Source: an uncultured Winogradskyella sp. (GTDB taxonomy: Bacteria; Bacteroidota; Bacteroidia; Flavobacteriales; Flavobacteriaceae). From it: a stretch of DNA of 64,000 bases. Shown one piece after another: positions 34,363-40,278 of this stretch. Within the stretch, counting starts at the first letter, position 1; every line of letters begins with the position of its first letter. The stretch is from contig NZ_CANMJY010000005.1 in assembly GCF_947498345.1 (NCBI RefSeq), positions 225,168-289,167 of the forward strand. Reading direction: 5' to 3'. Both the position numbers and the translations under genes were made by a program. The notes below the pieces were generated by a model. It made no database searches. It saw nothing but the letters and a program-made list of their open reading frames with translations, and was not told the DNA's origin.

Positions 34363-34869
34363 ATGAAGTCTACAATAGTCTCTATATTATTAGTATTTAC
34401 AACAATAGGCTTTAGTCAAGATAAATTTGATTTTAATGAAAAAGGCCTGGCGCCAGAATATATAATAGCTGCGATTGATAGTATACCAAAAAATACCTTA
34501 TATAAAAAAACACTCAAGTGGATTAAAAGCACGTCTAATAATCTAGAAATCCAAAATAAAACTAACACTATACAATTTACAGGTATTAAAGACAATGCAG
34601 TGCATGAAGGCAAACGTTATTTTCATATCAAATACACCATAAAAATTAGCTTCGAGGAAGGATTATACAAGTTTAAACCTTTAAAAGTGCAACTAAAAGC
34701 CAATAGTAAATACGATATGGGCTGGAAAGCATTTGATCTTAAAAAAGGGGACATATTCTTTAAAAAAGGAAAAGTGATAAAAAAGTTTAAATCCTATGTC
34801 AGTGATATCCCTAAAATATTAAATGACTTAAACGCCAATCTTTATAACTATTTAATAACCGAAGATTAA
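34363..34869 (+). CDS. Secreted hypothetical protein (DUF4468-like)
   Basis: Signal peptide; LYKKTLKWI...IKYTIKISFEEGLYKF; stop overlaps the integrase stop (TTAA 34866-34869). Confidence 0.6.
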   Translation: MKSTIVSILLVFTTIGFSQDKFDFNEKGLAPEYIIAAIDSIPKNTLYKKTLKWIKSTSNNLEIQNKTNTIQFTGIKDNAVHEGKRYFHIKYTIKISFEEGLYKFKPLKVQLKANSKYDMGWKAFDLKKGDIFFKKGKVIKKFKSYVSDIPKILNDLNANLYNYLITED

Positions 34870-35699
34870 AGTAAGTCCAAAGGGCTTTTTATATTTTCTA
34901 TAAATGCAGAAGACACACGCGTATAAATTTGAGTGGTCTTTATGTCTTTATGACCAAGCAATTTTTGGATAATCCTAATATCTGTTCCATTTTCTAATAA
35001 ATGTGTTGCAAAGCTATGCCTCAGTGTATGAGCTGTTATATTTTTTTTCACACTGACTCTTTTGGTTGCCTGTTTAATGACTTTCTGCAAACTACTTTGT
35101 GTATATTTCCCACCTTTATGTCCTTCAAATAAATACATCTTAGGTTTATATGCTTTAAAGTATTTTCGTAATTGTAGTTTTAGTTTATTAGAAAGCATAA
35201 CAATTCTATCTTTTTTCCCTTTGGAGTTTCTTATGATTACAATATTTCTAGAGCCATCAATATCAGATATTTGTAGATTTAAAAGCTCAGAACTTCGCAG
35301 TCCTAAGCCATAAAGACAAGCCATCATAGCTCTATGCTTTATATTGTCCGTCCTATTTAACAATAATTTCATTTCGCTTAATGATAAAACTATAGGTAAG
35401 TTATCAGGCATTTTTTTTACTGAAATGGCCTTAAATCTTATCGTTCTATCATACATCTCTTGGTAGAAGAGATTGAGAGCACTTAAACATTGCCTTTGCG
35501 TACTAAAAGCCATGCTCTTTTTTGTAATTTGCAGATATGCATTATTTAGTAATTCTTTATCGCTTAAATCTGCCCATTTAGAGAATTGAAACAAGTTAGC
35601 AAAGGTTTTTAAATGCGATTGATAATTGTCTATTGTATTTTGGCTATAGCCTTTTATTTCTAATAATTTACAAAACTTGCTAATTTCTTTAGTTATCAT
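34866..35699 (-). CDS. Integron-integrase-like tyrosine recombinase (SAM-like N-terminus) lacking the IntI insertion
   Basis: YSQNTIDNY, GLRSSE, SKGKKDR, HTLRHSFATHLLENG, LLGH, TTQIY, C-terminal SPLD; ATG 35699 preferred over 35747. Confidence 0.9.
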   Translation of the reverse strand: MITKEISKFCKLLEIKGYSQNTIDNYQSHLKTFANLFQFSKWADLSDKELLNNAYLQITKKSMAFSTQRQCLSALNLFYQEMYDRTIRFKAISVKKMPDNLPIVLSLSEMKLLLNRTDNIKHRAMMACLYGLGLRSSELLNLQISDIDGSRNIVIIRNSKGKKDRIVMLSNKLKLQLRKYFKAYKPKMYLFEGHKGGKYTQSSLQKVIKQATKRVSVKKNITAHTLRHSFATHLLENGTDIRIIQKLLGHKDIKTTQIYTRVSSAFIENIKSPLDLL

Positions 35700-35825
35700 A
35701 TATATACTAATTAGACATAAATATAGTAATACTATTTTTATACTCAATTGGTAGTTAGAAAATTAAAAGCTATCATTTTAGTGCGCTATGGTCGTCTAAA
35801 AAGTAACTTTTTTATATTTTGGCTA

Positions 35826-35846
35826 TTATAAACTAGTTGGCTGTAA
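35826..35846 (+). other. attI-like primary recombination site (TATAAACTAG|TTGGCTGTAA)
   Basis: Upstream of the divergent recombinase; GTTGGCTGTA (35836-35845) is the exact reverse complement of the end of unit 1. Confidence 0.7.
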
Positions 35847-35948
35847 TTTAAAAGTCCGTTAACTAAACGAAAATTAGTGTTTACTCATTAGACCTTTTTT
35901 ACATAAACTAACTGAATTAAATTGGTATTGAATTTTAAACGGAGAGAT

Positions 35949-36479
35949 TTGAAAAAAATAATACTTCTGATTTTCTTACTCAATTGCGGAATTGGAATTT
36001 CGCAAACTGAATTTCCATTTTATGAACAGATTGCGTTTGACTTTTATCAATCAACACTAATCGATTCCTTTCCAACTAAAAAGAAAGTAAAAGTTTATCC
36101 ATACGCACTTGATTTTCAACCTGACTATTTTGTTTTCAATAACCCAAGCTGTTTGGGAATAAAATGGAGAAGTAATGAGCAATTTGAGCCTCTAAAAGAT
36201 TATGTCGAATCCCAAATGAACATTGATTCAGATAGATTTGAATTGGACTTTTCTAAACTTGATAAAAAGAAGTTTAAAGTAAAAAAAAGAGGAAAAGGAA
36301 GTTATCCAAGACTGCATATCACAGCACCAAATAAAGAGATTGATGGAACAGAACGAATTTTCGTGAATATTCACGAGACACACGAATATTTATGGATTAG
36401 CTATCATCTTGAATTTAATGAAAATGGAGAAATAATTAATTGGTGCAGGAATTATGCTGAAGTAATAAGAACATATTAA
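35949..36479 (+). CDS. Cassette 1: secreted hypothetical protein
   Basis: TTG start with signal peptide KKIILLIFLLNCGIGISQ; no recognisable family. Confidence 0.75.
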   Translation: MKKIILLIFLLNCGIGISQTEFPFYEQIAFDFYQSTLIDSFPTKKKVKVYPYALDFQPDYFVFNNPSCLGIKWRSNEQFEPLKDYVESQMNIDSDRFELDFSKLDKKKFKVKKRGKGSYPRLHITAPNKEIDGTERIFVNIHETHEYLWISYHLEFNENGEIINWCRNYAEVIRTY

Positions 36480-36486
36480 TAAAAAC

Positions 36487-36626
36487 TACAGCCAACAATG
36501 TGTATAATTCATTGCTAGTTAGAGCCTACTTACGAAAGTCCTCACGGACTTTCTATCTGTGATTTATTTGCTATTTTAGTGCTTAAACACGCAACGAAAT
36601 CATACACTAGACCGTTATCCAACATT
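36487..36626 (+). repeat. attC-like imperfect palindrome 1 (123 bp from AAC to GTT)
   Basis: AAC..GTT ends, gtgtat/atacac, ttc.ttgc/gcaa.gaa, central gaaagtcc-tcac-ggactttc (36534-36553). Confidence 0.85.
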
Positions 36627-36635
36627 CAGAAAACC

Positions 36636-36839
36636 TTGAGAAAACGAAAAATCATTGGAATTCATTTTTTGACTTTTATCATTTTGGTAACTATTCTGTT
36701 TTTCTCGGCGGAGCCTTTATTAAATAGATTCGCTTCTGGAATTCACAATGTTGGAATGTGGCTGAACTTAATAATTTATGGAACAATTGTGATATTGATT
36801 TTGACTATTATTTCGTGTCTGATTTTCCTAAAAAATTAA
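36636..36839 (+). CDS. Cassette 2 gene A: small two-TM membrane protein
   Basis: Hydrophobic ORF; the called start 36579 lies inside the palindrome, so TTG 36636 is preferred. Confidence 0.55.
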   Translation: MRKRKIIGIHFLTFIILVTILFFSAEPLLNRFASGIHNVGMWLNLIIYGTIVILILTIISCLIFLKN

Positions 36840-36843
36840 CTGA

Positions 36844-37191
36844 ATGAAAGAACGACCTATTTTGATTTCAGCAATAATCCTGACCCTCATAATTGAATTA
36901 ATTTTAATTATATTGGTTTATAACAAAATTGGAACTGAAAGACTTCCATCTCAAATTGGAAGACTGACTATTCAACTGATTTTAATATTTTGGGTTTTAA
37001 ACAGTAAATCCCATATTGGTTTATTTTTATTAGCTGCCTACCATATTGTTTCTGGAATATTTGGAATGAATTCCAGTGGCTCGGCTGAATTACTTGGACA
37101 ATTATTAATTGGATTTCACATTGTAATCGGATTAGTAATTTATTTTCACTATTGGATTGAGGACAGAATCGGAATCAAAAATGTTGGCTAA
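36844..37191 (+). CDS. Cassette 2 gene B: four-TM hypothetical membrane protein
   Basis: 115-aa hydrophobic ORF whose TAA stop overlaps the GCTAAC inverse-core site. Confidence 0.75.
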   Translation: MKERPILISAIILTLIIELILIILVYNKIGTERLPSQIGRLTIQLILIFWVLNSKSHIGLFLLAAYHIVSGIFGMNSSGSAELLGQLLIGFHIVIGLVIYFHYWIEDRIGIKNVG

Positions 37192-37321
37192 CAACGTGTA
37201 TAGCGCATTGCGGTTGAATTCCTAATCGGAATTCATTGCAATTCACTATCTTTCGGTTACGTCGGATAATCCTAACTGATTTTCCGCAACTAACCATACA
37301 CGAACACGTTAGCTACAACTT
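37180..37321 (+). repeat. attC-like imperfect palindrome 2 (121 bp from AAC to GTT)
   Basis: AAC..GTT ends, gtgtat/atacac, ttgcgg/ccgcaa, inner gaattcc/ggaattc; end motifs shared with palindrome 1. Confidence 0.85.
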
Positions 37322-37435: not shown

Positions 37436-38746
37436 ATGAAAAAAGTTATAATACTCATAATTGTAATAATTTTAAATTCTGCCTGTAATAAATTCAATGG
37501 CAATAGTGAATTAAATTTTGAATTTCCAAAAAGTAAAATGGGTGAATTTGCAAAGGACTGGTTCTCTTATATCAATTCCAGAAATGACAATTATTTATTG
37601 ACTTACGATAAGAACAAAGAGTGGGAAGATCATTTATCTATGATAAAAGATATTTCTAGTCGAGTAGATGGCATAACACCGTATCTTATTTCTTATGAAA
37701 CTGAAGATTTCATTTCTATTTATTCAAAAGAAAAAAAAGGGTCATGGATAAAGGTTAATTTAGGATTGAATAGTGTAAATGAAATTACTGCAGCTGGTCT
37801 TAAAAAAACATATAAACCCATAGATTATGATCTCCGAAAGAAGTTAACAATAAAAGAAGTTAAAGAGATTATCGCTGATGTTTCTGAAAATTTAAGAACT
37901 AACTATGTCATTGAAAAGTCAAGGAGTATACTTGCCAATGAAATAGATCAATTTATGGCCAATGGAAGATATAACTCTATCAATCAAGGAGATTTACTTG
38001 CAGATGTATTAACAAAAGACTTAATCAACATCAGTAATGATAAGCACTTACAAATAATTCCTCCTAGTAGAATTTTAGAAGTAGAAAGTAGATTTGGAAT
38101 TACTAAGGATGAATTAGATTTTAATTTACCATTGGGTGATGAAACGTTAAAACTATCTAATATTAGCGCAAAAGTTCTTGAAAACAATATTGGTTACATT
38201 AAATTGGAAAGATTCGTATCCAATCTAAAAACCATTAACGACACCAAAGATGCATTTTCAACTCTTCTTGACACCAAGGCTGTTATTATTGATATAAGGT
38301 ATTCTAGTGGTGGTGATGGCTTGGCAGTTGCCGACTTATTATCTTACTTCTTTAAAAAAAATGAGCTAATTGCAACTTTAGCTGAATTGGGTGAAATTTC
38401 TTATCCTGAAAATAATACTAAAATAGATAACCTAAAATCTAAATTTCTGAAAAAACCATTATATGTTTTAACCAGTTCAAAAACTATTTCAGCTGGTGAG
38501 GCTTTTGTATATTTACTCAAAGCTAAAAAAAGAGCTCTTATTATTGGCGAAAAAACAGCTGGAGCAGGATTTAGGGTTGATGCATTCAAATTATCTAATG
38601 GATTTTATTTCGTTAATTCCATTTATACGAGTTTTGATATTGAAAACGGTGAAGGATGGCAAGGCTCTGGGGTATTACCCGATATTAACCTAGATAAAGC
38701 TAAATCTTTGGACGAAGCTATATCAATAATCCTTAACAAAGAATAA
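37436..38746 (+). CDS. S41 family peptidase (lipoprotein)
   Basis: Lipobox LNSAC, NIGYIKL, IIDIRYSSGGD, TISAGE, IIGEKTAGAG, GSGVLPDI. Confidence 0.88.
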   Translation: MKKVIILIIVIILNSACNKFNGNSELNFEFPKSKMGEFAKDWFSYINSRNDNYLLTYDKNKEWEDHLSMIKDISSRVDGITPYLISYETEDFISIYSKEKKGSWIKVNLGLNSVNEITAAGLKKTYKPIDYDLRKKLTIKEVKEIIADVSENLRTNYVIEKSRSILANEIDQFMANGRYNSINQGDLLADVLTKDLINISNDKHLQIIPPSRILEVESRFGITKDELDFNLPLGDETLKLSNISAKVLENNIGYIKLERFVSNLKTINDTKDAFSTLLDTKAVIIDIRYSSGGDGLAVADLLSYFFKKNELIATLAELGEISYPENNTKIDNLKSKFLKKPLYVLTSSKTISAGEAFVYLLKAKKRALIIGEKTAGAGFRVDAFKLSNGFYFVNSIYTSFDIENGEGWQGSGVLPDINLDKAKSLDEAISIILNKE

Positions 38747-38817
38747 TATAACTACATCTAATTAAAATAAAACCTTGGCAAGGTATAACTTAAACTGAAA
38801 CAGTAATCAAACTACTT

Positions 38818-40278
38818 ATGACTACCAGAACCCTAATTTTAAAAAGTCTTATAATATTATTAAGCTTTTCAGCTTGTGGTCAAATATCCTCAAATCAAAA
38901 AGGAATATCTAATGATGTTAAAATTGAATCAAACTATTTAGTAAAGGATTTAGAAACCTTAAAGTTATGGATAGAAAAAGCACATGGTGATCCTTACCGA
39001 TTTACTTCTAAAGAGGCTTTAGATAGTCAATTCGTATTAGCAAAAAAGAAAGTTTTGGCAAACAAACAAATAACAGCAAACGCCTTTGCAGGAATAGTAA
39101 TGCCCATTATTGCAGAATTAAGGGACGGTCACGCTCAAGTATTTCTTCCAGATTTAGATAAGATAGAAGGAAACATAATATTTCCTTTAAAATTTATATT
39201 TATCAACAATAAGCCACATGTAATTTCTGTTTTTTTTAAAAATGATAAAGTGGAAATTGGATCAGAAATATTGGAAATAAACGGGCAAAATGTAACATCA
39301 TTTTTCAATGAGATTATTCCTTATTTACACAGAGATGGGAATATAGAAAATGTTAGATACAGACGACTTCAAAATCAAATCTATTTTACAAAAGTAATGA
39401 TTGCCCTTGGAAAAGCTAAAGCAACATACGTTTTAAAACTTAAAACCAGAGAAGGAAAAATCATAACAACCTCTATAAGTGGTTTAAGCCAATTAGAATA
39501 TAATAGTAAAAAATCAAAAGATAAAGCATCAACCACGGCTCTAACCTATAAAAGAATAGATACCATAGAATCAACCTCCATTATAGATATTAATTCGTTT
39601 AATCCTCATTATTATCAGAAAGGAAAGTTTTATCAAAAGATAGATAGCATTATGAATATTGTTCAAAAAGATGACATCTCTAATTTAATTATTGACTTAA
39701 GAAATAATAATGGTGGGGAAGACTCTTATGTGATGTACTTATTGAGATACATATTAAATGACGGGTTTGCAATGAGCAGTGAAGTAACTTTTTCTCAAAA
39801 TGATTATAAATTTTTGCCAGATGGTAAACATTGGGATATTGACCCTAAATGTTTTAAACCTAATGATAAAGGAAGTTATGACGCTACCGAATTCTTATGG
39901 GAAGAATATCCTACATTAGGTACATTTCTACCTTTCAAAACTCGCTTTGGAGGCAAACTAGTTGTATTGATCAATGCTTTTACATTTTCAGCTGCCTCTG
40001 ATTTTGCAGCTCAACTACAATTTCATAAAAGAGCAACTTTTGTCGGTGAGGAAACTGGCGGAAGTCGTATCGGAAATGTTAGTGGTTATGTTCCTACCTT
40101 AGATTTACCAAATTCGCAAGTGAAAATTAATTTACCACTGATGAGCATTAAAAATCCTTTTTTTAATTCTCACTTTTCTGACAGAGGTGTAATTCCAGAC
40201 TATATGCTAGAACTAGGTATAAATGACATTTTAAAACAAAATGATATCGTTCTTAAAAAAGCAATAAGCCTTTTTTAA
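38818..40278 (+). CDS. S41 family peptidase (lipoprotein)
   Basis: Lipobox SFSAC, DGHA, IIDLRNNNGG, TFSAASDF, VGEETGG, GVIPD. Confidence 0.88.
   Translation: MTTRTLILKSLIILLSFSACGQISSNQKGISNDVKIESNYLVKDLETLKLWIEKAHGDPYRFTSKEALDSQFVLAKKKVLANKQITANAFAGIVMPIIAELRDGHAQVFLPDLDKIEGNIIFPLKFIFINNKPHVISVFFKNDKVEIGSEILEINGQNVTSFFNEIIPYLHRDGNIENVRYRRLQNQIYFTKVMIALGKAKATYVLKLKTREGKIITTSISGLSQLEYNSKKSKDKASTTALTYKRIDTIESTSIIDINSFNPHYYQKGKFYQKIDSIMNIVQKDDISNLIIDLRNNNGGEDSYVMYLLRYILNDGFAMSSEVTFSQNDYKFLPDGKHWDIDPKCFKPNDKGSYDATEFLWEEYPTLGTFLPFKTRFGGKLVVLINAFTFSAASDFAAQLQFHKRATFVGEETGGSRIGNVSGYVPTLDLPNSQVKINLPLMSIKNPFFNSHFSDRGVIPDYMLELGINDILKQNDIVLKKAISLF

Follow-up and report, generated by a model that had tools for sequence, protein, structure and literature searches.

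Beside a divergently oriented tyrosine recombinase gene, the stretch of DNA analysed here (the window, 64,000 nucleotides from the genome of Winogradskyella sp., a marine flavobacterium, C5:225168-289167) carries two co-oriented units of short genes, each of which ends in a long imperfect palindrome. The question raised by this locus is whether such units are gene cassettes that are captured and moved in the manner of an integron and, if so, which enzyme acts on them and on which form of the site. The features that bear on this question are listed below in window coordinates; coordinates elsewhere in the genome carry the number of their contig.

34866..35699, minus strand: Xer-like tyrosine recombinase of 277 aa (start codon ATG at 35699), with PF00589 and a SAM-like N-domain; divergent from the array
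35718..35836, plus strand: primary insertion site resembling attI, crossover within GTT 35836-35838 (...TATAAACTAG|TT); an 87-88% identical copy lies at C5:298186-298314
35836..35849, plus strand: left end of cassette 1 (GTTGGCTGTAATTT); in a circle this R' half pairs with 36483-36496
35837..36614, plus strand: cassette 1, 778 bp, from the TT of the attI junction to the G of its own site; an identical copy has unrelated flanks
35949..36479, plus strand: cassette 1 gene, a predicted lipoprotein of 176 aa with a signal peptide ending LLNC (from the ORF list)
36484..36616, plus strand: attC-like site 1, with R'' 36484-36496, spacer AAT 36497-36499, L'' 36500-36515, apical hairpin 36534-36553, L' 36591-36607, spacer TAGACC 36608-36613 and R' GTT 36614-36616; one of a family of 61 sites, its helices backed by covariation
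36615..37308, plus strand: cassette 2, 694 bp, with two small membrane-protein ORFs (about 36636-36839 and 36844-37191, from the ORF list); delimited by the match of its left end to its own R''
37180..37310, plus strand: attC-like site 2, with R'' ...GGCTAAC at 37192 and R' GTT 37308-37310; assigned by site-family membership and fold

Cassette ends and the site family

In cassette 1 a short leader precedes a single lipoprotein gene, which is followed by an imperfectly palindromic site of ~130 nt. Its left end at 35836-35845 (GTTGGCTGTA) is the exact reverse complement of 36487-36496 (TACAGCCAAC), a 10/10 match which becomes 13/14 when extended outward (GTTGGCTGTAATTT vs GTTGGCTGTAGTTT), while the GTT end lying physically beside the palindrome (GTTATCCAAC, 36614-36623) matches the R'' box of site 1 at only 4/10. 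The initial annotation had reported both the self-complementary ends and the poor match of the adjacent GTT end, and its coordinates and both scores were reproduced here. The cassette is circularly permuted: the R'' box at the start of its site has no partner there and finds it in the first bases of the cassette (TTGGCTGTA...). Cassette 2 obeys the same end rule, with 36614-36626 matching the reverse complement of 37180-37192 at 12/13, and cross-pairing of the ends between the two cassettes gives 4-5/10. Searches of the cassette 1 and cassette 2 proteins against Pfam and NCBIfam matched no family, and a query of public assemblies for the exact sequence of the cassette-1 protein returned no record. 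The array in the window ends at 37308 with GTTAGCTACAAC, and is directly followed by two tandem S41-family peptidase paralogues (37436-40278) that have no bounding sites.

In the genome as a whole (3.82 Mb, 33% GC, 32 contigs, 99.98% complete) an iterated nhmmer profile found 61 related sites of ~130 nt, one after each cassette, in arrays on C1 (two), C2, C3, C5 (two), C10 and C11, together with a few lone sites. For neighbouring pairs of sites we scored the 10 bases after the upstream GTT against the reverse complement of the downstream R''. The end rule held at 8/10 or better in 31 of the 41 adjacent pairs, mostly at 9/10, as against a mean of 1.7 pairs and a maximum of 8 over 20,000 shuffles of the partners. 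End complementarity is beyond chance. At the 11th base a single mismatch recurs (A vs G); it is conserved, and the bottom strand has a G·T wobble there. The rule also extends to arrays in other genomes, with 9/9 pairs in L102, 4/4 in L097 and 2/3 at 9/10 in L001. With a covariance model of the site, 20 to at least 77 copies were found in 21 of 24 other genomes of the genus and one to six in the remaining three, and the family is scarce or absent in other families of the order.

Some members of the family depart from the usual form. The site at C5:298932-299116 has an interior insertion of ~65 nt, giving 184 nt from AAC to GTT vs the usual ~119, and a further long site lies at C1:584980-585160. 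At least three additional left-junction contexts recur among array heads and lone cassettes, namely CTAAAAACAATGTTTTTA...G|TT (C1:485809, C1:475312, C3:143134), GACTCATATCA..AAG|TT (C3:165825, C12:43271) and GCTTCATATACTAACCG|TT (C12:21194, C17:28623), which could be extra types of insertion site or decayed sites.

A blastn search of the genome with cassette 1 plus its flanks identified a second copy 39 kb away at C5:300462-301239 (full match C5:300455-301241), identical at 778/778 positions between the GTT points. It occupies third place in a different array (C5:298-304 kb), whose cargo includes an Imm26 immunity cassette, an FRG-domain gene and a LuxR-type regulator. Its flanks are unrelated to those in the window, and the two copies part exactly at GTT on both sides: upstream the junctions read ...TATAAACTAG|TTGGCTG in the window vs ...ACACAAACACG|TTGGCTG in the second copy, and downstream ...CTAGACCG|TTATCC vs ...CTAGACCG|TTGGCA. 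Because the identical copy sits as the third cassette of another array, cassette 1 is a discrete unit with its breakpoints inside GTT. Judged from sequence, the zero differences over 778 bp argue for recent movement of cassette 1 and for an active system.

The second array is headed by the other attI copy (C5:298186-298314, equivalent to L101:4187-4315), and the likeness between the two attI copies stops just after GTT. Since they are only 87-88% identical and the cassette 1 copy does not adjoin attI in this array of six cassettes, that copy is not part of a larger duplication. Beside the second attI copy there is no recombinase gene, its upstream neighbour being a co-oriented DUF4268 gene, and one recombinase may serve two attI sites 37 kb apart. 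Two smaller observations concern the attI-like site itself. Stretches of it resemble the interior of site 1 (35731-35759 vs 36495-36523, 76% over 29 nt, and 35769-35787 vs 36570-36582; e.g. GCTATCATTTTAGTGCGC vs GCTATTTTAGTGC), and attI may be derived from a cassette site. Also, TATATTTTG at 35813-35821, 15-25 nt before the crossover and kept in the second copy, differs at a single base from the Bacteroidota -7 promoter motif TAnnTTTG and could be a putative cassette promoter.

Beyond this genome, a sample of 200 genomes, one for each genus of the family, yielded homologues of the cassette-1 protein in no more than 8 further genera, one of them 92% identical in amino acid sequence. Seven of the nine relatives adjoin sites of the same family. 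The 92%, 35% and 34% homologues (L092, L097 and L098) all begin GTTGGCTGTAAT... and end at an R'' reading ACTACAGCCAAC, and keep the GTTGGCTGTA / TACAGCCAAC ends, each with different neighbours. The R-box 'alleles' are not exclusive to one gene, as an unrelated cassette at C12:43271 has the same ends. In L092 the 92% cassette ends ...ACTACAGCCAACAATGG|TAACCGTTGCGC (last ~80 nt in gene orientation, the reverse complement of L092:1-83), and the site there has apparently lost its whole interior, R'' being joined almost directly to R'.

Together with the second copy, these three homologues support the expectation, set out in the initial annotation, that the gene would recur with the same ends at other array positions. 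That annotation had also proposed that 35837-36614 was inserted as a unit from a circle by a crossover at G|TT. The discrete unit is borne out by the identical copy and its divergent flanks, and the circle would be its likely precursor. The crossover falls within the invariant GTT and is resolved to that triplet, no finer.

Anatomy and folding of the sites

Read on the coding strand of the cassette, the site is ordered as R'' (NNNNNNYAAC), a 3-nt spacer, L'' (GTGTAT and about 10 nt), a variable interior that often contains a G+C-rich apical hairpin, L' (...CATACAC), a 6-nt spacer and R' (GTTR...). In an alignment of 34 sites AAC and GTT are invariant (34/34), and the RYYYAAC/GTTRRRY consensus is only partly kept. 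The outer helices were supplied by hand and their pairs then counted in this alignment. Pairing is 81-93% in the L helices, where compensatory changes occur, and 74% in the outer helices, vs 25-38% in slid registers. Changes have occurred on both sides in 18 of 26 outer-helix pairs (at pair 26-131, for example, 12 sequences have AU and 11 have GC), and the observed covariation was reached by none of 500 shuffles. RNAalifold returned no consensus structure for the same alignment, as the site subfamilies do not line up with one another in their interiors. An Rfam scan of the window matched no family; the attC covariance model of IntegronFinder is not among the Rfam models.

The helices are not equivalent on the two strands. 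On the top strand four positions are occupied by A·C or C·A mismatches (in 32/34, 34/34, 33/34 and 26/34 sites), all of which become G·T wobbles on the bottom strand. When 28 reconstituted sites were folded with DNA energy parameters, the bottom strand was more stable than the top strand in 26/28 (mean -2.9 kcal/mol, p = 1e-5), and restoring the circular junction improved the fold over the array form in 27/28 cassettes (mean -4.6 kcal/mol). For site 1 in its circle form, the bottom strand folds into a single uninterrupted long hairpin of -25.1 kcal/mol; the bottom strand of site 2 folds at -28.2 kcal/mol (z = -6.05). Covariation and predicted stability together show that the sites are selected for intramolecular pairing with a strand bias. 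No conserved extrahelical (bulged) bases of the canonical kind were found among the sites; in their place are the four G·T wobbles and the 3/6-nt spacer. A position beside GTGTAT that might be taken for an extrahelical base is a conserved A·C/G·T mismatch.

These properties bear on a reading in which the cassettes are the same and the sites recombine as double-stranded DNA, as in classical Xer/dif- or lambda-type recombination, the palindromy serving cruciform formation or symmetric protein binding. Such a reading would suit the neighbouring recombinase, which resembles the duplex-acting XerA and XerD and is without the hairpin-reading I2 domain. However, the arms of the site covary instead of holding a fixed protein-binding sequence, and an asymmetry in which four conserved A·C / G·T positions leave the bottom strand better folded would be meaningless for a duplex. 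We therefore consider recombination between duplex sites unlikely, and favour the folded bottom strand as the substrate.

The recombinase and the proposed mechanism

In alignments to VchIntIA the product of 34866-35699 has the full catalytic set of a tyrosine recombinase (GLR, KGKKDR, HTLRH, LLGH and IYT motifs). It passes the XerA-type model NF040815 (222.8 vs a cut-off of 220) and fails both the IntI model TIGR02249 (204 vs a cut-off of 265), to which it gives a split match with model positions about 180-239 of 255 missing, and the integron integrase model PRK15417 (130 vs 435). The alignment to VchIntIA (2a3v) likewise falls into two blocks, leaving chain residues 185-243, the region of the IntI-specific domain, with no counterpart. 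There is no canonical IntI in the whole genome and no better IntI candidate than this protein. The IntI-specific domain was reported as necessary for IntI activity by Messier and Roy (2001), as cited in PMC9668308. The recombinase is without this domain, and single-strand hairpin recognition would therefore require another mechanism.

The nearest relatives in public genomes, at 44-50% identity, come from Ichthyenterobacterium, Polaribacter-like bacteria, Flagellimonas, Maribacter, Chitinophagales and Paludibacteraceae, and in eight of the closest of these loci with flank available, sites of the same family lie upstream on the divergent strand. Within the genus a homologue is present at E <= 1e-40 in 23 of the 24 other genomes. 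Two layouts occur in the genus, one divergent (L102, L104) and one co-oriented with the recombinase first (L103, L105), and the divergent arrangement of recombinase, attI and array is also that of L001. In both layouts the left end of the first cassette directly adjoins the recombinase gene. The recombinase family and the arrays are thus shown to travel together.

It could nonetheless be argued that another enzyme moves the cassettes, such as housekeeping XerC/XerD-like paralogues or a different integrase, and that the neighbouring recombinase has an unrelated role. The genome does encode other tyrosine recombinases (C5:45082, C1:646860 and C2:34965), and most of its arrays, among them the one headed by the second attI copy, have no recombinase beside them. 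The genus homologues of the neighbouring recombinase are moreover strongly diverged (36-50% identical over full-length matches) while the sites are well conserved, which leaves room for another catalyst. Against this stand the recurrence of the adjacency of recombinase family and array across families and orders, and the position of the first cassette directly beside the recombinase gene in divergent and co-oriented layouts alike, so that we regard a different catalyst as improbable.

That the palindromes are MITE/REP-like intergenic repeats or terminators, their end match a product of shared consensus and the second copy one of homologous recombination or segmental duplication, is hardly credible: the sites are abundant, palindromic and intergenic and their G+C-rich apical hairpin could terminate transcription, but a MITE or REP element carries both of its terminal inverted repeats whereas R'' here matches the site's own adjacent R' half at a mean of 4.35/10 and that of the preceding site at 7.6/10, partner shuffling abolishes the end-match signal, the cassette copies are 100% identical vs 88% for the attI copies with the cassette copy away from attI in the other array, and the left breakpoint shares only GTT and a few bases, too little for homologous exchange.

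The best explanation, which we consider likely, is that cassette 1 belongs to an integron-like capture system as one of its mobile gene cassettes, with the 277-aa recombinase as catalyst and the folded strand as substrate. Under this model the cassette would have been excised or copied from the C5:298-304 kb array as a circle with a fully paired site, for which the predicted junction is ...CTAGACCG|TTGGCTGTA..., i.e. ...CATACACTAGACCG|TTGGCTGTAATTT.... The circle would then have been inserted at the attI-like site beside the recombinase gene, probably by one strand exchange within GTT, pushing cassette 2 one place down, an order of events as in integron shuffling. The conserved adjacency makes the product of 34866-35699 the most likely catalyst, and covariation with strand asymmetry makes the folded bottom strand of the site the most likely substrate. 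In that fold the R''/R' and L''/L' duplexes may stand in for the two arms of a Xer-type core site, with an asymmetric unpaired spacer between them, and the choice of strand would be encoded by the four conserved G·T wobbles and not by the extrahelical bases that the I2 helix of IntI reads. With a duplicate that shows zero differences, one copy of it at attI, the strain is a practical experimental system.

Relation to integrons and rAID-1 arrays

The closest published relatives of this system are integrons and the rAID-1 arrays of Bacteroidales. Integrons consist of an IntI integrase, an attI site and cassettes bounded by attC, and occur also as sedentary chromosomal integrons and as CALINs (Cury et al. 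2016, PMC4889954). As in integrons, a tyrosine recombinase gene here diverges from an attI-like site followed by a co-oriented array of mostly single-gene cassettes, and many arrays have no adjoining integrase. The cassette ends in an imperfect palindrome that starts ...AAC and ends GTT..., is circularly permuted at GTT, and contains paired L boxes, an unpaired spacer and the R'' (...AAC) and R' (GTT...) boxes. Its bottom strand folds better. As described in PMC2811028, the GTT triplet alone is common to attI and cassette sites. The integron hallmark of a crossover at G|TT with the first bases complementing the cassette's own R'' is seen here at the resolution of the GTT triplet.

The differences lie in the enzyme and in the detail of the site. 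In contrast to IntI, the recombinase is without the additional domain (I2 helix, around patch III) and scores as XerA-type. The R boxes follow GTTR/YAAC only and not GTTRRRY, the site has a 3-nt vs 6-nt spacer and four G·T wobbles where no conserved extrahelical bases were found, and this genome holds several array heads and two attI copies. The system functions like an integron and is outside the integron family by the integrase criterion. The comparison with integron cassettes made in the initial annotation accordingly holds for the cassette pattern, and the word integron applies by analogy only, the recombinase not being an IntI.

The current view is that integrons recombine with the help of the IntI-specific domain, on which the process depends and which reads extrahelical bases of the folded attC. 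At this locus the cassette signature is complete (permuted ends, GTT crossover, covarying hairpins, bottom-strand bias and an identical cassette in two arrays), while the only candidate enzyme is without that domain. If the mechanism were confirmed, cassette capture through hairpin sites would have evolved or persisted without IntI, and marine Flavobacteriaceae would hold a large, mostly unannotated pool of mobile genes. Xer/dif recombination and the pdif modules of Acinetobacter plasmids we also take to be among the closest systems. Like the present arrays, pdif modules combine a Xer-type recombinase with discrete gene modules bounded by recombination sites, and a folded site here would mimic the arm-spacer-arm core. 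The differences are that the present sites are hairpins of ~130 nt vs duplex dif sites of 28 bp, and that the units are permuted within a single site and not flanked by inverted pdif pairs.

In the literature we found only rAID-1 as an integron-like system of Bacteroidota with a Xer-like recombinase, and for no Bacteroidota system a paper that sets out where cassettes begin and end, where crossover occurs or how the sites fold. In the rAID-1 clusters of gut Bacteroidales a recombinase of the XerD family is accompanied by repeats between the genes, described as 'reminiscent of integrons' (Ross et al. 2019, bioRxiv 10.1101/471110), and the mechanism of their biogenesis was called unknown in 2025 (PMC12247911); these two papers themselves give neither cassette boundaries nor crossover point nor site folding. 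By description the likeness extends from the phylum to a XerD-like recombinase beside short co-oriented gene arrays with repetitive intergenic motifs, and to cargo of the immunity type, represented here by the Imm26 cassette in the sister array. L103 and L105, of the same genus, have a co-oriented, rAID-like layout with the same site family. In the window, however, the recombinase is shorter (277 aa) and divergent from the array, and the rAID-1 arrangement of a 5' XerD-like recombinase co-directional with at least two downstream short genes is not found; the rAID-1 recombinase is further defined by at least 44% identity to BF9343_RS08045. Confirmation of the mechanism would provide a concrete mechanism for the rAID-type arrays of Bacteroidales.

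A wider proposal, to which we give about even credence, is that Bacteroidota hold a second, IntI-independent integron lineage which is active here, in which a plain Xer-like recombinase would capture and shuffle cassettes through folded single strands, the strand being chosen by G·T wobbles and not by extrahelical bases that an I2 helix reads, and in which the same chemistry would build immunity arrays of the rAID type. Other genomes of the genus also encode longer recombinases (355-388 aa), extended at the N terminus by roughly 85-110 aa (L103:2754-3920, L105:1016-2122 and L102:11135-12202); some of these are co-oriented with their array as in rAID-1, and the same site family is used.
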